IMG/VR virus record: IMGVR_UViG_2531839666_000031
Origin: a virus
Lineage: Duplodnaviria; Heunggongvirae; Uroviricota; Caudoviricetes
Length of the DNA: 12,562 nucleotides
Direction: 5' to 3' (one strand)
Below are positions 1 through 7,674 of this stretch, piece after piece (the first letter of the stretch is position 1; each line of letters begins with the position of its first letter). The position numbers and the translations under genes were made by a program. The notes under the pieces are model-generated. The model did not search any database, was not told the origin of the DNA, and saw nothing but the letters and a program-made list of their open reading frames with translations.

Positions 1-140
1 GATCTGGGACCTAAACTGACTGAATTTACGTTCAGTGTACTTGTGATGGGGGATGATGTTCAGACACAGCGAAATCGTCTGCGTGATGCCCTTGTGCTCC
101 CGGTGCCGGGAGCTGCTTCACCCGGATTACGCACGTTAAT

Positions 141-1217
141 GTGCTGATAAACAGCTTTGAAAGTCGTTATAACGCCGCTGAACAGGGCGTGGTTGAGTTC
201 ACCATTAATGTCACGCCGGTAAGTGATGATACCGCACCTGCTGTCACACAGGACACGGCCGCCATTCTGGAGCAGAAGAGTACCACCGCGCTCGGGCAGG
301 TTTTTGAAACCCTGGAAGCGGGCTGGACGGTGATCTCTGACGGAATGCACGATGTCCAGGCAATGACCGAAACCATCAGTGATAAGGTGTCCGCCCTGGA
401 AAATGCCGTTTCCGGCATGGGGATTGTACAGGATATCAGTGCCTTTACTGCCACGTTCACGGCGCTGAAAGGGAATGCCACGGCATTACTGACAGCACCT
501 TCCCGCATGGCCTCATCTTTTGCGGGGCTTTTCAGTGCCCTGATCACCCTGCCATCGCTGCCGTCACTGTCTTCAGGAGGCCTGAATACCCGGCCCGGTG
601 GCAGTATCGGCCGGACGACATCCGCCGTCTCTCAGGGAATGCCGCAACTGTACAGGACATTATCTTCCCTGCGTTACGTGCTGGATGAGCAGGATAATCC
701 GCAGACTCTCATCGGTCTGACACCGGCAGCACAAAAGAATATTCGTCTGATACGGGCGGTAATGCAGAGTGCTGCCGTGGTGGCCCAGGCACAGACCGTG
801 GGAAAACTGCTGGATCAGGTTCTCAGTCAGGAAACCCTGCCGGACAGTGACGCAGCCCACCGTACCTGGCCTGTCTGGCTGGAAAGTTCAGTTGATCTTC
901 AGCGCATTAACCGTGACTTAAGCGAAGCGCTCGAACGGCAGGTGATGACACTGTCCGGGCAGGGGTATACCGCCACGGCGCTGACGCTTCGTGATGCCAG
1001 ACTGGCACTGACAGAGGATCTGAATACACGGGGAGTTCAGCTACCCGGTGCAACAGTAGTGACTGTACGTACCACCGAGCCTGCACTGGTGACCCTGTAC
1101 CGTGCCACCGGGAACAGTACCGGCTGGCAACGTTTTGTGCGCCGTAACGGTATTGTTGATCCGCTGTTCATTCCCGGAGGCCATTCAGTGGAGGTGATTA
1201 GTGAGCAGCAGGGTTGA
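141..1217 (+). CDS. Tail protein, DNA circularization protein N-like (Mu gp43 family); true 5' end upstream, apparently frameshifted near 87-147
   Basis: 358-aa ORF ending 17 nt inside the next gene, in the position of Mu N in the order N-P-Q-V-W-R-S. No Shine-Dalgarno before the GTG at 141. A second frame is open from window start to the stop at 145-147 (..FTFSVLVMGDDVQTQRNRLRDAL..) and looks like the upstream part of the same protein. Family assignment is by synteny and recalled features. Confidence 0.5.
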   Translation: MLINSFESRYNAAEQGVVEFTINVTPVSDDTAPAVTQDTAAILEQKSTTALGQVFETLEAGWTVISDGMHDVQAMTETISDKVSALENAVSGMGIVQDISAFTATFTALKGNATALLTAPSRMASSFAGLFSALITLPSLPSLSSGGLNTRPGGSIGRTTSAVSQGMPQLYRTLSSLRYVLDEQDNPQTLIGLTPAAQKNIRLIRAVMQSAAVVAQAQTVGKLLDQVLSQETLPDSDAAHRTWPVWLESSVDLQRINRDLSEALERQVMTLSGQGYTATALTLRDARLALTEDLNTRGVQLPGATVVTVRTTEPALVTLYRATGNSTGWQRFVRRNGIVDPLFIPGGHSVEVISEQQG

Positions 1218-2324
1218 ACTGTATCTGGGCGGTGAGATTTTTTCCGGCTGGCTGACGGTGAGTGTTCGTCGCTCTCTTGAACATCTGGCGGGCTCCTTTG
1301 AACTGGGGGTAATGATGCCCGGTGTACGCCTTCCGTCATCCGTCCGTGCCGGTCAGTCTCTGGAATTGCGCATTGACGGTCAGCCTGTGATCACTGGCTG
1401 GCTGGATCAGGTCCGGCAGCGCATCAGCGCCACGCGTTTTCAGATCACGCTCAGCGGACGGGATAAAACCGGTGACCTGGTGGACTGTTCAGCCATTCAT
1501 CCGGGCAGCCAGTGGAGGAACCGCACGCTGGAGCACATTGCTTCAGATTTGTGTGCTCCGTTCGGGGTCACGGTGCGCTGGCAGGTAAATGATGCAACGG
1601 CAGCCCGGCCCTTTCCACCTTCACACTGGAAAACTCAGAAACCGTGGCAGATGCGCTGACAAGGGCCGCGAGACACAGAGGCGTCCTGGTAACCAGTAAT
1701 GCCGCCGGTGAACTGGTTTTCACTCAGGCCGGCAGTCAGCGTGGCGACACGCTGACGCTGGGCGAAAATCTGCTGGATTTGGATCACAACGTGGATCACC
1801 GTCTGCGCCACAGTGAATACCGTGTACGGGGGCACGGGCGTGGTGGTGGTCATGCCGGGGATGCACTGACAGCCGGAACGCTGGCCGCACCAGTTGGTAC
1901 GGTGACAGACAGTGCCATCCACCGTTACAGACCGAAAATTGTGCTGGCGGATCATGCTGTTGATGCAGACGGTGCACGCCAGAGGGCTGTCCGGGAAATG
2001 CGCCGGGCGGTTGCCCGCTCTGTGCGCCTGACAGCCACCGTGCGGCACTGGTTTCGGGAGAACGGCCAGTTGTGGGATATCAACCTGCTGACGGCTGTCA
2101 CGGCTCCCCGCACCGGAGTGGAAGAGCGTGATCTTCTTGTCTGTCAGGTGGAGTTTTCGCTGGATGCAAATCACGGCGAAACCACCCGTCTGATTCTGGC
2201 ACCCCGTGACGGCTTTATTGTTCCGGCAGAGCCGGGAAACAGCGGAAGCGGAAATGCGGGCGACGTGGACGCCTTCGTGCGGGCACAGATGAAAAAACAG
2301 GGGATTAAATTCAATGATGAATGA
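1201..2324 (+). pseudogene. Baseplate hub protein (Mu gp44/P, phage late control D family), interrupted by a frameshift between 1593 and 1659
   Basis: GTG start at 1201 preceded by GGAGG (1187-1191). ORF 1201..1659 (152 aa) stops at 1657-1659, while the following frame is already open from 1593 and runs to 2324 (226 aa); together they make about 378 aa, the size of an intact hub protein. Sense-looking protein in both frames across the overlap (..VTVRWQVNDATAARPF.. / ..STFTLENSETVADALTRAARHRGVLV..). Shift lies next to the run cagcccggccc. Confidence 0.6.
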
Positions 2325-2928
2325 CGAAGTCATCAGCCGCCTTCTGGCCCCCGTGATGCGGGGTGTTCGTCTGCTGTTCGGGCGTGGTGTACTGACCGGC
2401 ACAACGGACACGCTGAAAATCCAGAATGTGCAAATCACCGGTATGGATGGTGAAACCTTTGATGACGTTGAACGCCCCCAGCAGTACGGGCAAATCAGCG
2501 TCCCCCTGCCTGGTGCGGAAGTTTTTCTGGCCTGTGCTGGCGGACAACGGGATCAGGCCGTGGTGCTTGTGGTGGAAGACCGCCGCAGTCGCCCGACCGG
2601 ACTTACCGCCGGAGATACCGGCGTGTATCACCATGAGGGGCACCGTATACGTCTGACAAAGAACGGCCGGATCATTGTGACCTGTAAGACACTGGAGATT
2701 TACGCCGATGAAGGTGTTCAGGTGGATACACCGGAGGCTCACTTTACCGGTAATATCACAGTGGATAAGAACCTGCATGTCAAAGGCAATGTGTCCATTG
2801 ACGGCACCGGAAGATCACAGGGGGCGTTCACGATGTCCGAAGCGGTTATTGCCGGGATCACCTATTCAGGTCATGTGCATCACGATAACGGTGAAGGCAG
2901 CAAAACGGGAGGACCAGAGAATGGCTGA
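2314..2928 (+). CDS. Baseplate spike/assembly protein (Mu gp45-like, gpV-type)
   Basis: 204-aa ORF; ATG at 2314 overlaps the end of the hub gene (stop 2322-2324); position and size fit Mu gp45 in the conserved baseplate cluster. Confidence 0.7.
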   Translation: MMNDEVISRLLAPVMRGVRLLFGRGVLTGTTDTLKIQNVQITGMDGETFDDVERPQQYGQISVPLPGAEVFLACAGGQRDQAVVLVVEDRRSRPTGLTAGDTGVYHHEGHRIRLTKNGRIIVTCKTLEIYADEGVQVDTPEAHFTGNITVDKNLHVKGNVSIDGTGRSQGAFTMSEAVIAGITYSGHVHHDNGEGSKTGGPENG

Positions 2929-3358
2929 TATTGCTGTCGTCTGGGATCAGGGTTGTGGTTCCCTGCAACTGAACGGCGCAGATCTTCTGACGGATAACAG
3001 CCTGCTGACTGCGGTCATTATTTCACTGTTTACGGACAGGCGGGCGCTGGATTCCGATGAAATCCCTGACGGCACCCGTGACCGTCGGGGATGGTGGGGA
3101 GACAGTTTCCGGGAGCGCCCCATTGGCTCCCGTCTCTGGCTGTTAAGCCGTGAAAAGACGCTGTCCTCCGTGGTCAGCCGTGCACAGGCCTATGCTGATG
3201 AAGCGCTGGCGTGGCTGCATAAAAGCGGTGTTGCCACATCCGTGGTATGTCATGCCATGCGTGTGGGGCATGATCGCCTTTCGCTTTCCGTGAAAATCAC
3301 CCTGCCGGACGGAAGCAGACATCCGATGATTTTTTATGCTGATATGAAGGGGGAATGA
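2921..3358 (+). CDS. Baseplate protein (Mu gp46-like, GP46 family)
   Basis: ATG at 2921 overlaps the gp45 stop (ATGGCTGA). 146 aa. The longer ORF call from 2708 is an out-of-frame upstream extension overlapping gp45. Confidence 0.65.
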   Translation: MADIAVVWDQGCGSLQLNGADLLTDNSLLTAVIISLFTDRRALDSDEIPDGTRDRRGWWGDSFRERPIGSRLWLLSREKTLSSVVSRAQAYADEALAWLHKSGVATSVVCHAMRVGHDRLSLSVKITLPDGSRHPMIFYADMKGE

Positions 3359-4440
3359 TGCCTTATCAGCCCTTACCACTGGCGCAACTGATCACACAGA
3401 CACAACAGGATATCAGCCAGCGCCTGCCCGGTTCGCAGCCGGGCGTGAATGAAACCACCCTGAATGCCATTGCGTATGCACTGGCGGGTCTGTCAGCACA
3501 GGAGCATGAACATCTGGCCTGGATCTCCCGGCAGATAATTCCGACAGAAGCTGATGAAGCCGAACTCCTGAAACACTGCGCATTCTGGGGTGTCATCCGT
3601 AAACCGGCTTCCCGCGCTGACGGACCGGTACAACTGATGCTGACCACGGATGCAGGGATCACGGAAGGCGTACTCCTTCAGCGAAGCGATGGTGTTGTGT
3701 ACCGCATCACCGGCTCTGCGACCGGAAAAGCCGGAACACTGAATGTTAATGTGGAGGCGGAAAGTGCGGGGCGCGCCGGAAATACCCCGACCGGAACCCG
3801 CCTGTCCTTTATCACGCCACAGGCGGGCATCAACCAGACAGCCACGGTTACCGGCACGGGACTCACCGGTGGTGCGGATGTGGAAACGGTGCCGGAGTTG
3901 CTGTCCAGGCTGGTATTCCGGGTACAGAACCCGCCATCAGGGGGAACACAGTATGATTTTGAACGCTGGGCACGGGAAGTACCGGGCGTGACGCGGGCAT
4001 GGTGTAAGCCTGAATGGCCTGAGGCGGGTAGTGTTGGTGTGACTTTTGTTCAGGATAATAACCCTGACATTTTCCCCGGAGAAGGTGATGTGAAGCGGGT
4101 GGCGGATTATATCCGCAGTCATGATGATCCGGCGACGGGCCAGCCCGTTGGTCAGCCACTTGGGCCGACAATCAGCGTGTTTAAGCTGACCAATAAGCCG
4201 GTGGCGTTTGAGATCAGGATTGTACCCAAAACGCCGGAAAATCAGGCTGCCGTAAAACAGGCATTAACGGACCTGCTTTATAACGAATCGCGGCCGGGTG
4301 GACTTGTATTGCCTTCATCATTCTGGCGGGCTGTTGCAGGGGTGAAAGGACTGGAGGATTTTGAAGTTCGCAGTCCGCTGAAGTCCGTGATGGCCGGAGA
4401 TACAGAGTTGCTGACTGTGGGGGAAATCACATGGCTGTAA
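3355..4440 (+). CDS. Baseplate J-like protein (Mu gp47-like)
   Basis: 361-aa ORF, ATGA overlap with the gp46 stop, typical size and position for the baseplate J/wedge protein. Confidence 0.75.
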   Translation: MMPYQPLPLAQLITQTQQDISQRLPGSQPGVNETTLNAIAYALAGLSAQEHEHLAWISRQIIPTEADEAELLKHCAFWGVIRKPASRADGPVQLMLTTDAGITEGVLLQRSDGVVYRITGSATGKAGTLNVNVEAESAGRAGNTPTGTRLSFITPQAGINQTATVTGTGLTGGADVETVPELLSRLVFRVQNPPSGGTQYDFERWAREVPGVTRAWCKPEWPEAGSVGVTFVQDNNPDIFPGEGDVKRVADYIRSHDDPATGQPVGQPLGPTISVFKLTNKPVAFEIRIVPKTPENQAAVKQALTDLLYNESRPGGLVLPSSFWRAVAGVKGLEDFEVRSPLKSVMAGDTELLTVGEITWL

Positions 4441-4991
4441 CCCTGACCCCGCATCAGCGCGCCCTGTTGCAGTTGCTGCCTGACGGGCTGGCATGGGATA
4501 AGCGGCCGTCATCCGTTCTTGCGGCTTTGTGCCTGGGCCTCAGTCATTCCACGGAGCGTGTTTCCTGGACCGGTAACCAGATGCTGGCAGAACGTTTTCC
4601 TGATTCATCCCGTCTGCTGCTGGAAGACTGGGAGCGTTATCTGGGGTTACCGGAATGTGATATGACCGGCGCAACCATTCAGGAGCGTCAGCGTTATGCC
4701 GGGAATAAATACCGGATGAAACCCTCTCTTAACCGTGAATTTTATATCCGGTTTGCGGCAGAGTTTGGTTATGAAATAGATATTCAGCCATCACCGGATT
4801 CACAGTGGGTCAGTATTGTCACGATTAACAGTGAAACCGGCTACCGGAATATGAATGTGCTGGATGATATTCTCACCCCGCTGCGTATTTATGAGGGTGG
4901 TGCGCTGGAATGTATTCTGAACCGTTATAAGCCTGCATGGCAGACGTTTATTTACGTGTATGCAAACAGCCATGAAGAGGAGACTATTTAA
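4431..4991 (+). CDS. Tail protein (Mu gp48-like, DUF2313/YmfQ-like)
   Basis: 186-aa ORF, start overlaps the gp47 stop, stop overlaps the tail-fibre start (TAATG at 4989-4993); position immediately upstream of the fibre gene as in Mu and e14. Confidence 0.65.
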   Translation: MAVTLTPHQRALLQLLPDGLAWDKRPSSVLAALCLGLSHSTERVSWTGNQMLAERFPDSSRLLLEDWERYLGLPECDMTGATIQERQRYAGNKYRMKPSLNREFYIRFAAEFGYEIDIQPSPDSQWVSIVTINSETGYRNMNVLDDILTPLRIYEGGALECILNRYKPAWQTFIYVYANSHEEETI

Positions 4992-5902
4992 TGTTTCATG
5001 TTGATAATAATTCCGGCGTGGCGAATATGCCTGCGCTGGCACCGGCGCAGAGTAATACCACCACCTGGTTTACCGAAGGTGACGGACAAAAAGGTATCAG
5101 CTGGATTGGTCAGGACTGGCTGAATATTCTCCAGGCCGAACTGCTGAATATTCTGGCTGAAGCCAGTATTCAGCCGGATAAGGCGCAGTTAAACCAGCTT
5201 ACGCTGTCCATTAAAGCCATTATCGCTGCGAATGCCTTTTCCCGGAAAAACAACCTGAAAGAAATTGCTGATGCCGGTGCGGAAGCCCAGCGTCTGGCCC
5301 GTGGTTATCTTGGTCTGGGGACGCTTGCCACAAAAAACAGTCTTGGTCCCGCTGACGTTAATGCCCTGGCGAAGGATCAGAACCTTGCCGACCTGGAGAA
5401 TGCGGAAACCGCCCGTAATAATCTGGATGTTTACAGCAGGAGCGAAGGTGATAACCGTTACCTGCGCAGGGAGCAGAACGGCGCAGACATTCCGGATAAA
5501 GGCGCTTTTATCGATAACGTCGGTTTACGGGAAACGGTAAATAAGGCTGCTGATGCCCTGCCATCGGGTGGAACCGCCGTGGCAGCAAACAGACTCGCCA
5601 CCCCAAGAAATATTAATGGCGTTCCTTTTGACGGAACGCAGGATATCAACATCACGTCAGGAATGACGCAGTCAACCGCAGATGGCCGGTATGTACAGAA
5701 TGTTCAGCTTGGAGCACAGAGCTATCATTCACCCGGAGGCAATGAAATATCATGGAATTACAGCGCACCTTCCGGTTGTATGCTTTCCGGTATTAACGTG
5801 CAGGAAACCGGCTCCCGGTCTGCGGACAATATCGGTGGGGTCTATTATCGCCCGGTTCAGATTTATATTAATAATGCCTGGAGAACGGTAAGTTCAGTGT
5901 AA
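4991..5902 (+). CDS. Tail fibre protein (Mu S-like): constant N-terminal part plus variable C-terminal part currently joined in frame
   Basis: 303-aa ORF; N-terminus MFHVDNNSGV..WFTEGDG..ILQAELLNIL..IQPDKAQLNQL is of the Mu S/e14 Stf type; contains the left crossover site at the constant/variable boundary (..NGADIPDKGAFIDNVGLRETVN..); C-terminus ..VYYRPVQIYINNAW resembles the alternative cassette on the other strand. Confidence 0.8.
   Translation: MFHVDNNSGVANMPALAPAQSNTTTWFTEGDGQKGISWIGQDWLNILQAELLNILAEASIQPDKAQLNQLTLSIKAIIAANAFSRKNNLKEIADAGAEAQRLARGYLGLGTLATKNSLGPADVNALAKDQNLADLENAETARNNLDVYSRSEGDNRYLRREQNGADIPDKGAFIDNVGLRETVNKAADALPSGGTAVAANRLATPRNINGVPFDGTQDINITSGMTQSTADGRYVQNVQLGAQSYHSPGGNEISWNYSAPSGCMLSGINVQETGSRSADNIGGVYYRPVQIYINNAWRTVSSV
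5508..5533. other. Left crossover site for a Din-family DNA invertase (gix/hix/pix-like 26-mer)
   Basis: TTATCGATAACG-TC-GGTTTACGGGAA; about 22 of 26 positions match the recalled gix consensus TTATCCAAAACC-TC-GGTTTACAGGAA; lies inside the fibre gene, centre within the Val codon at 5519-5521. Confidence 0.65.
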
Positions 5903-5912
5903 ACCACAGAAA

Positions 5913-5931
5913 AGGGTGCTGAATGCACCCT
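5913..5931. terminator. Hairpin between the convergent fibre and assembly genes (possible bidirectional terminator)
   Basis: AGGGTGC-tgaat-GCACCCT, 7-bp perfect stem with 5-nt loop, lying between the fibre stop (5902) and the - strand assembly gene stop (5937); T-rich flank on the - strand. Confidence 0.4.
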
Positions 5932-5936
5932 CTGAA

Positions 5937-6458
5937 TTATTCCGGTTTTTCCGGCCAGGGAATCGCCTGGTAATGCCCCTCACTGGCAATATCATTAAAG
6001 TGCATTTCTTTAAGCTGTCGGATATACGCCATCCAGCGCGTCAGCTGTAATTTATTTTCATCGCTAATCATGTCCAGTTTTAATTCTGTTTTCCAGTCAT
6101 CCACGGTTTCGTTGGCTTCCTGGAGCAGCGATGAGCGACGCTTTTCAGCAACCGTCTTCCAGTTTACCGGCACCTTTGATATCAGGCCATCAGAAAACTG
6201 CCAGTTACCGTCAATATTCACACCTTCCGGCAGTTCGTCCACTTCAACAACAGTAAAACCTGCCGGATATAAAGCAGAGACATCTTCAGCAACAGAGCAG
6301 ATAATACCCGTTACAGGCGAAATACAGAGTTTGTATTTCTTTGTGAAAAGCGGGATAGATTCATAAAAATCCCTTCCGTCCTCACTCTGGAAATACTGAA
6401 CATCCTCACCATAGGGTTTGTCTTTCGGGTAATATCGTTTGACATTAATCAGTTGCAT
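5937..6458 (-). CDS. Tail fibre assembly protein (Mu U-like chaperone)
   Basis: ORF 5937..6509. Likely start is the ATG at 6458-6456 (MQLINVKRYYPK..) preceded by GGTGA; the 17 upstream codons are hydrophobic and lack a ribosome-binding site. C-terminus ..HYQAIPWPEKPE matches the conserved Tfa C-terminal motif. Confidence 0.75.
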   Translation of the reverse strand: MQLINVKRYYPKDKPYGEDVQYFQSEDGRDFYESIPLFTKKYKLCISPVTGIICSVAEDVSALYPAGFTVVEVDELPEGVNIDGNWQFSDGLISKVPVNWKTVAEKRRSSLLQEANETVDDWKTELKLDMISDENKLQLTRWMAYIRQLKEMHFNDIASEGHYQAIPWPEKPE

Positions 6459-6579
6459 AAACATCACCATGTAAATCAATGATAAAAACAGGAATAATAC
6501 TATCGCCATATACAGGCAATGCTTGTCTGAAATAACGCATATTTCAGATGCTGGCTGCTGTGTGCTATGCCCCCGTTAA

Positions 6580-6946
6580 TTAAATACTTGCAGCGGATAC
6601 CCAATGCCCATTAATACAATATTGTATCTGTCTGTAATAAACACGGTCATCACCACCACGCATTTCCCAGTCTCCGTTAGTCTTAAAACCGGTAATCACA
6701 TTTCCTGATGACAGGGAGTAATTATATTCCAGTCCGCCGCTTAATGCCTGCGCTCCCAGTCTTACCCCTGTAACATAACGCTGATTGGCCGTTGATTCCG
6801 GCATTCCTGACGTAATGTTTATATCCTGCGTGCCGTCAAAGGCGACACCATTGATTCTGCGGGCATTTGCCAGCCTGCTTGCTGCAACAGCCGTACCGTT
6901 TGATGGCAGGGCATTCGCGGCCCTGTTTACCGTATCCCGTAAACCG
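6580..6946 (-). CDS. Silent alternative tail-fibre C-terminal cassette (Sv'-like, no start codon of its own)
   Basis: Reading the - strand from the right crossover site gives ..GLRDTVNRAANALPSNGTAVAASRLANARRINGVAFDGTQDINITSGMPESTANQRYV..GDWEMRGGDDRVYYRQIQYCINGHWVSAASI-stop with no internal stop; a TGA lies immediately upstream of the crossover site. Homologous to the expressed C-terminus. Confidence 0.6.
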
Positions 6947-6959
6947 AGGTTTCAGGGAT
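6934..6959. other. Right crossover site for a Din-family DNA invertase (near-palindromic 26-mer)
   Basis: ATCCCGTAAACC-GA-GGTTTCAGGGAT, inverted relative to the left site, 55 bp upstream of the invertase start. Confidence 0.65.
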
Positions 6960-7013
6960 GCCGTATATCTGCTTTAAAAGGCCTTTCCATCTCTTTTTAA
7001 GGAAGGTAAATAC

Positions 7014-7575
7014 ATGCTGATTGGCTATATACGCGTATCAACAAATGACCAGAACACAGGTTTACAAAGAAATGCGCTGGAATGTGCAGGATGTGAGCAG
7101 ATTTTTGAAGGTAAAATGAGCGGAAAAACAACGCAGCGGCCGGGACTGAAGCGGGCACTGAAGAAACTAAAACCCGGTGACACGCTGATGGTCTGGAAAC
7201 TGGACAGGCTGGGGCGCAGTATGCGCCACCTTGTTGCGCTGACAGATGAATTACAGCAACAGGGGATAAATTTTCGTAGTCTTACTGACAACATTGATAC
7301 GTCAACCCCCACTGGGGCGCTTCTTTTTTCACATAATGGGTGCGCTGGCAGAAATGGAGCGTGAATTAATTGTCGAACGGACACGGGCTGGTCTTGCAGC
7401 TGCCCGTGAAAGGGGACGAACCGGCGGCAGACCCCGCCGTCTCACGCAGGAACAATACGAGCAGGTCGGGCGTTTACTGGCCGGGGGTGTCAGTCGAAGA
7501 CAGGTGGCACTTATTTTTGATATCGGTCTTTCAACCCTTTATCGTTATTATCCTGCGAGCGTTTCGGAAAAATAA
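7014..7575 (+). pseudogene. Serine DNA invertase (Gin/Pin/Cin/Hin family) with an apparent +1 frameshift in a C5 run at 7306-7310
   Basis: N-terminus MLIGYIRVSTNDQNTGLQRNAL..DRLGRSM is a canonical resolvase/invertase catalytic domain (Ser in VST). The frame ends at 7364, and the conserved continuation GRFFFHIMGALAEMERELIVERT..GGRP.. is in the next frame (7294..7575). Deleting one C from acccccact restores ..DTSTPLGRFFFH... ATG at 7014 preceded by AAGGAAGG. Confidence 0.7.
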
Positions 7576-7674
7576 GACGCTCTCTTTGTTGGGCCTTTAC
7601 TGAATTAACGCAAAATGGCGTTTATCGGTCTGTGGATATGATAATTCAGTTTATTCAGGAACAGGCTGATTATT

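Follow-up and report, generated by a model that had tools for sequence, protein, structure and literature searches.

The DNA invertase gene of an Sp18-type, Mu-like prophage carries two private changes in the source record, and either of them alone should inactivate the enzyme. The window, i.e., the whole stretch of 12,562 nucleotides from the virus record IMGVR_UViG_2531839666_000031, has one extra C at position 7312, which splits the gene, and an A to G exchange at position 7111, which would remove an invariant active-site aspartate (Asp33Gly). Judged from the pattern of differences to the relatives, the extra C probably arose through faulty base calling or assembly of the source record rather than through a mutation of the strain. 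The Asp33Gly exchange is more likely to be real than the frameshift, and there is good reason to regard it as a real change of the strain; it is the better candidate for a true loss of function. It is quite probable that the prophage's own invertase is inactive in the source strain, mainly via Asp33Gly, and the claim of the initial annotation that the prophage cannot flip its own segment is thus probably right, albeit mainly owing to a change that the annotation had not noticed.

The prophage and its insertion site

According to sequence identity, the prophage belongs to the Sp18 type and is inserted in the yeaX gene of E. coli. Positions 1-11955 of the window are 99.7% identical to the Mu-like prophages of E. 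coli O157:H7 Z1813 and of strain 2010C-3347, and their identity to many further STEC copies is 98.5-99.4%. The right end of the prophage (...GCGCTATA) meets yeaX at 11955/11956, and the window closes with 607 bases of host yeaX that are 100% identical to E. coli. The prophage-yeaX insertion was found in none of 5,426 complete E. coli genomes (RefSeq), and also not in IMG/VR, the GTDB representative genomes and the JGI metagenomes, which fits the near-random transposition of Mu-type phages and a strain that is missing from those collections.

The gene order of the relatives runs from a DNA circularisation protein via baseplate genes, the tail fibre and the tail fibre assembly gene (on the opposite strand) to the recombinase, and beyond the recombinase it continues with a DUF6645 protein, DUF1378 and DUF826, and then com and mom. 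About 3.3 kb of cargo (window 7675-10324) are situated between the invertase gene and com, where Mu has nothing. The cargo encodes a protein of 679 aa, in which a SASA sialate-O-acetylesterase-like domain is combined with DUF6645, followed by DUF1378 and DUF826; it is similar to the region of Stx phages that encodes NanS-p esterases. Among the relatives, the esterase gene shows strong mosaicism, with hundreds of differences to the closely related copy L001 at about 7800-9400, and a PADLOC search with the cargo proteins gave no match. A hypothetical gene at 10363-10820 (-) carries the annotation 'frameshifted' in every relative examined, and in the window it is represented by the overlapping ORFs 10363-10557 and 10413-10820. 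A break that is common to all copies could mean that the gene decayed long ago or that it contains a conserved recoding site.

The invertase gene is divided between two reading frames

By homology, the region 7014-7575 is the gin homologue, of the Gin/Din family, of the Sp18-type Mu-like prophage. The repaired invertase has 186 aa, its Resolvase domain is recognized by Pfam with E = 3.6e-50, and it is 75% identical to Mu Gin in a gapless alignment (136/182 residues; E = 2e-90 to PDB 3UJ3/4M6F). The window invertase contains Y5, R7, S9, Q13, Q18, R42, D64, R65, and R68, and it has Gly at the invariant Asp33. Its sequence EQVGRLL aligns with EQAGRLL of Gin, which represents the helix 1 motif Q-x-x-R-L. 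This motif is specific for invertases and contacts Fis and the enhancer (PMC3798978). The 5' part of the coding region is well conserved and aligns to Mu gin without gaps. In Mu and Salmonella, the Fis-bound recombinational enhancer is located in the 5' part of the invertase gene.

Instead of the single frame of about 185-195 aa that is typical for the Gin/Din family, the window contains a gene that is broken at codon 100 by C7312, and frame 0 stops at 7364. The frame 0 ORF (7014-7364, +) starts with MLIGYIRVSTNDQN... and encodes 116 aa, of which 99 are native, while the last 17 are out of frame and unlike any invertase. The rest of the invertase is found in frame +1 (7313-7575, +) and comprises helix E (GRFFFHIMGALAEMERELIVERT...), the linker, and HTH_7 (E = 4.6e-15), with the stop codon at 7573-7575; the open frame extends from 7294 to 7575 and reads ...LGRFFFHIMGALAEMERELIVERT... 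around the break. The initial annotation had stated that the conserved invertase sequence continues in the +1 frame, and this was confirmed for GRFFFHIMGALAEMERELIVERT as well as for the remainder up to the stop. In Pfam, the Resolvase domain is divided between the two frames, with profile positions 2-114 in frame 0 and positions 108-144 together with the complete HTH_7 in frame +1, and therefore the frame break in the window sequence is real and not a chance pattern. Helix E is the oligomerization helix (PMC4513852). The frame 0 product as written would lack helix E and the entire DNA-binding domain and would be inert, and the gene as written is predicted to be unable to yield a DNA-binding, dimerizing enzyme.

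The frame break had been ascribed to a base inserted into the C5 run of acccccact, i.e., ACCCCCACT at 7305-7313. While the break itself stands on the basis of Pfam and the ORFs, its position does not. Base-by-base alignment with two intact relatives identified C7312 (+) as the extra base that shifts the frame (ACCCCCA[C]TGGGG); it lies between A7311 and T7313 and destroys the codon of Met100. The intact 186-aa recombinases WP_000904930 and WP_000904927 are encoded by ACG TCA ACC CCC ATG GGG CGC (T-S-T-P-M-G-R), and the window has ACC CCC ACT GGG GCG. The window reads ACCCCCACTGGGG at 7305-7317, and the intact allele reads ACCCCCATGGGG, that is, five C and then ATG. The run consists of five C in the window and in the intact relatives, and it has not been lengthened by the insertion. 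The intact allele (ACCCCCA-TGGGG) is present in 20/20 fetched relatives. The window gene differs from the L001 copy (WP_000904930) at four positions, namely the two private changes and two silent ones.

Removal of one base from ACCCCCACT leads to a protein of 186 aa, and in this respect the expectation that the removal of one C would restore a protein of about 187 aa was essentially right. However, when a C is deleted from the run instead of C7312, the frame is restored at the expense of Leu100 in place of the invariant Met100, which is found in 120/120 homologue cluster representatives and also in Gin and gamma-delta resolvase. Resequencing that reveals four C instead of five had been suggested as the refutation of the frameshift; this is wrong and would be a misleading test, because five C ahead of the ATG are the intact state.

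The Asp33Gly exchange

The catalytic N-terminus had been regarded as intact, which it is not. The private A to G exchange at 7111 (+) converts GAT to GGT and thereby Asp33 to Gly, and it turns the FEDK of the intact relatives into FEGK. Asp is present at position 33 in 120/120 homologues that are 72-99% identical, and a perfect match to the 81 bases of the window around 7111 was found in 0/232 related records, the best match being 80/81. In the alignment, Gly33 of the window is equivalent to D33 of Gin and D36 of gamma-delta/Tn3 resolvase. The Tn3 resolvase variants D36A and D36N cleave with less than 0.0001 and with 0.0004 of the parental rate, respectively, they exhibit zero resolution in vivo, and their synapsis is weakened (PMC2794168). 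By analogy to these mutants, in which the change of D36 abolishes cleavage and recombination, Asp33Gly would abolish cleavage by itself; Tn3 and gamma-delta are, however, resolvases, unlike the window invertase, and PMC2794168 covers no Gly substitution in a Gin-type enzyme. That the exchange is probably real follows from the observation that the record is not rich in substitution errors and that the other three private substitutions resemble ordinary variation. Should the frameshift be an error, the enzyme would have its full length but would contain Gly33.

Private changes in the window

Private changes were called against six relatives, and the ratio of indels to substitutions was compared with that of five close relatives. 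In the window, seven one-base indels are private, i.e., deletions after 93, 107, 130, 137, and 1611 and insertions at 7312 and 10943, and there are four private substitutions, at 1662 and 2261 (both silent), 6990, and 7111. This ratio of 7:4 compares with a ratio of 1:36 in the five close relatives pooled (Fisher p = 3e-5), and with the first 140 bases excluded it is still 3:4 versus 1:36 (p = 0.01). Natural mutation produces about ten substitutions per indel, and purifying selection reduces the share of indels further. Assuming that indels represent about 1/10 of all changes, which is our own estimate, the binomial probability of 7/11 indels is about 2e-5.

Four of the deletions (93-137, +) are clustered in 45 bases at the beginning of the window, where their net shift of -4 leads to a frameshift in the Mu N-like circularisation gene; this region resembles a contig end or a stretch of poor quality, and it bears on the quality of the sequence. 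The deletion after 1611 (+, T4>T3) splits the baseplate assembly gene, which has 374 aa in the relatives, into the ORFs 1201-1659 and 1644-2324 with 152 and 226 aa; if it were true, the phage would be unable to build a baseplate. The insertion at 10943 (+, A3>A4) affects codon 3 of com and joins com to the reading frame of an ATG further upstream, at 10927. The com variant (10927-11136) is not destroyed, as its 69-aa product still belongs to the Com zinc-ribbon family, and an AGGAGG ribosome-binding site is present at ATG 10927. Without the reads, no biological meaning should be given to the additional frameshifts of the record, which affect the circularisation gene, the baseplate gene, and com.

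Five of the seven indels alter the length of a short homopolymer, and C7312 adds another C just behind the C5 run, from which it is separated by A7311. Flow-based sequencing is known to produce errors in which the base of a homopolymer appears again just past the run. None of the eleven private alleles is present in 20 related loci (8 RefSeq, 12 IMG/VR). With an 81-base query, the C7312 insertion was found in 0 of 245 copies in 204 complete E. coli genomes, all matches being 80/81, and exact pattern scans for the mutant 7312 allele yielded none in IMG/VR, the GTDB representative genomes, and the JGI metagenomes, while a control scan retrieved the intact allele from 12 IMG/VR contigs. Megablast searches with 30-base queries centred on C7312 and G7111 gave no match; they had no internal positive control, so the 81-base queries were relied on. 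The protein collection has no record of the exact products, i.e., the 116-aa invertase, the 152-aa baseplate fragment, and the 69-aa com variant. The absence of a private allele from other collections is weak evidence, because private alleles are absent elsewhere by definition.

No error was seen in the 607 bases of the host flank. The 561-bp invertase gene contains 2/11 private changes (p = 0.09) and the region 6934-7577 contains 3/11 (p = 0.02), including the substitution at 6990, which is located 24 nt upstream of the invertase gene. A scan of 6850-7700 for promoters and terminators revealed nothing over the shuffled expectation and is uninformative on the change at 6990.

Origin of the frameshift

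The excess of indels, the cluster at 93-137, the bias towards homopolymers, and the absence of the allele elsewhere make an error the more likely origin of the frameshift, although C7312 is no simple homopolymer miscount and the host flank is free of errors, which argues against it. A competing explanation would be that gin is a real pseudogene in a decaying prophage, which was hit twice, by Asp33Gly and by the +1 insertion, and that the circularisation and baseplate genes are also truly frameshifted; the fibre segment would then be locked as Sv(+), save for flipping by a resident Pin-type invertase. We regard this as possible but rather unlikely. It would account for two independent inactivating changes within one small gene plus the private change 24 nt upstream, and the accumulation of 3/11 private changes in 6934-7577 fits relaxed selection or selection for the loss of gin. 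Frameshift decay of prophages is common in this host group, and the O157 prophages carry many real frameshifts (PMC2669165). In addition, a different frameshift variant of the same invertase is present in other (Logan) assemblies (P0005, 12 member sequences), with the frameshift at a G5 run matching window 7477-7481, and therefore broken copies of this gene, or errors in copies, exist elsewhere. E. coli also often carries invertases with 73-74% identity that could act in trans (P0098, P0118). On the other hand, an indel to substitution ratio of 7:4 is very unlikely to arise naturally and is not shown by the relatives, ordinary mutation does not explain four one-base deletions in a stretch of 45 bases, and four private substitutions in 12 kb leave scant time for even one neutral indel in a gene of 561 bp. 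That both lesions are real, so that the invertase was knocked out twice and the fibre was fixed as Sv(+), possibly under selection, must be called unlikely; if true, it would be a natural case of a locked host-range switch, in the orientation without a sense-strand assembly gene.

It is very improbable that ribosomes overcome the frameshift through a +1 slip, with tRNA-Pro moving on CCC-A, which would result in T-P-L-G-R-F-F-F, or that variation of the C run acts as an on/off switch for the invertase. A tRNA-Pro is able to slip on CCC-N, and the local sequence would allow the frame to be regained by a +1 shift from CCC (7308-7310) to CCA. However, the shifted arrangement is not conserved (0/245 related copies, 0/20 fetched loci), and the product would have Leu at the invariant Met and would retain Asp33Gly. 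Programmed +1 frameshifting was rejected on account of the unconserved arrangement and of the Leu that it would introduce at the invariant Met, and phase variation was rejected because the run has five C in every copy examined. Returning to the error in the record as the preferred explanation of C7312, inactivation by the insertion, as originally proposed, holds in so far as the gene is broken as written, but a biological origin of the insertion is doubtful in view of the seven indels versus four substitutions, and Asp33Gly had been overlooked.

The invertible tail fibre segment

The invertase gene is preceded by an invertible, G-like segment of 1,426 bp (5521-6946), which is bordered by two mutually inverted 26-bp sites with matching central dinucleotides. 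The left site, gixL (5508-5533; TTATCGATAACG-TC-GGTTTACGGGAA), lies in the frame of S and is 22/26 identical to gixL of Mu, and the right site, gixR (6934-6959; ATCCCGTAAACC-GA-GGTTTCAGGGAT), is 19/26 identical to gixR of Mu. gixL and the reverse complement of gixR are 18/26 identical, the central TC being complementary to GA. The 20-base core of gixR (6937-6956) occurs once in the window, with a chance expectation of 0.

The tail fibre gene S (4991-5902, +; 303 aa), annotated as phage tail protein in the relatives, consists of the constant part Sc up to gixL and the variable part Sv (5522-5902). The tail fibre assembly gene U' (5937-6509, -; Pfam Caudo_TAP, E = 2.4e-18; annotated at 5937-6458 in the relatives), as assembled, runs antisense to the late operon, and the alternative C-terminal fibre part Sv' (6580-6946, -) is silent in this state. 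When 5521-6946 was flipped in silico, an intact S' of 298 aa (Sc + Sv') without a stop resulted, followed by U' on the sense strand. The flipped segment, with Sv' fused to Sc, is found beside an intact invertase gene in the gene maps of O157:H7 Z869 and OkiPb01712 (L007 and L008). Junction matches with at least 95% identity were found in about 160 records for the unflipped and in about 18 records for the flipped orientation. Because both orientations exist among the relatives, the fibre switch is considered active in this phage family. The window has the segment in the commoner Sv(+) orientation.

The segment 5521-6946 has two fibre ends and one assembly gene, U', which is paired with Sv'. The Sv orientation, which is that of the window and of about 90% of the assembled relatives, has no assembly gene on the sense strand, while Mu has one for each orientation. 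The relatives also have an annotated hypothetical protein of 61 aa, at window 6785-7000 (+), which is antisense to Sv', spans gixR, and would be broken up by an inversion; it is probably a spurious gene call.

Based on the homology to Mu Gin, the 186-aa serine invertase of the relatives would bind the two 26-bp gix sites and, together with Fis and the enhancer, would flip the 1.43-kb segment between them. The flip would replace Sv by Sv' as the C-terminal ~125 aa of the fibre and would switch U' on or off. In comparison with six relatives, no private change is present at either gix site. Gin, Cin, Pin, and Hin are known to complement one another, and E. coli often carries invertases that are 73-74% identical (P0098 on 408 contigs, P0118 on 303 contigs). 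With both gix sites unchanged and such invertases frequent, flipping in trans by a Pin-type invertase is possible, as had been proposed for another Din invertase.

Comparison with known systems

Gin-type fibre switches of Mu-like prophages are textbook knowledge, and the invertible region of Sp18 is known as well. It matters little that a single prophage copy has a broken invertase, be this an error of the record or a routine pseudogene, and the analysis is of practical use as a correction. The assignment to a Gin/Din-family invertase that adjoins a fibre switch was corroborated by the 75% identity to Mu Gin, by the Mu-like gix sites, and by a true invertible segment. Invertase and Gin align over 182 residues without gaps and have the same domain order, Resolvase and HTH_7. 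As in Mu, the invertase gene is located directly to the right of the invertible segment, the 26-bp gix sites (22/26 and 19/26 identical) have a GA/TC centre, and the left site lies within the tail fibre gene, so that inversion swaps the C-terminus of the fibre. In contrast to Mu, the segment has 1.43 kb instead of 3 kb, and it contains two short variable parts of about 125 aa each and the single assembly gene U', so that the Sv orientation has none. Furthermore, about 3.3 kb of cargo separate the invertase gene of the window from com/mom, whereas com directly follows gin in Mu, and the window gene is frameshifted and encodes Gly at the position of Asp33.

Sp18 of E. coli O157:H7 Sakai has been reported as an intact prophage of the Mu type; it contains an invertible region for host specificity, the genes of which differ from those of Mu (PMC2669165). 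The Sp18-type relatives with the recombinases WP_000904930 and WP_000904927 have the same neighbours and the same gene order as the window. The window differs from them by C7312, A7111G, and six further private one-base indels, and the prophage is inserted in yeaX, a site other than that of Sp18.
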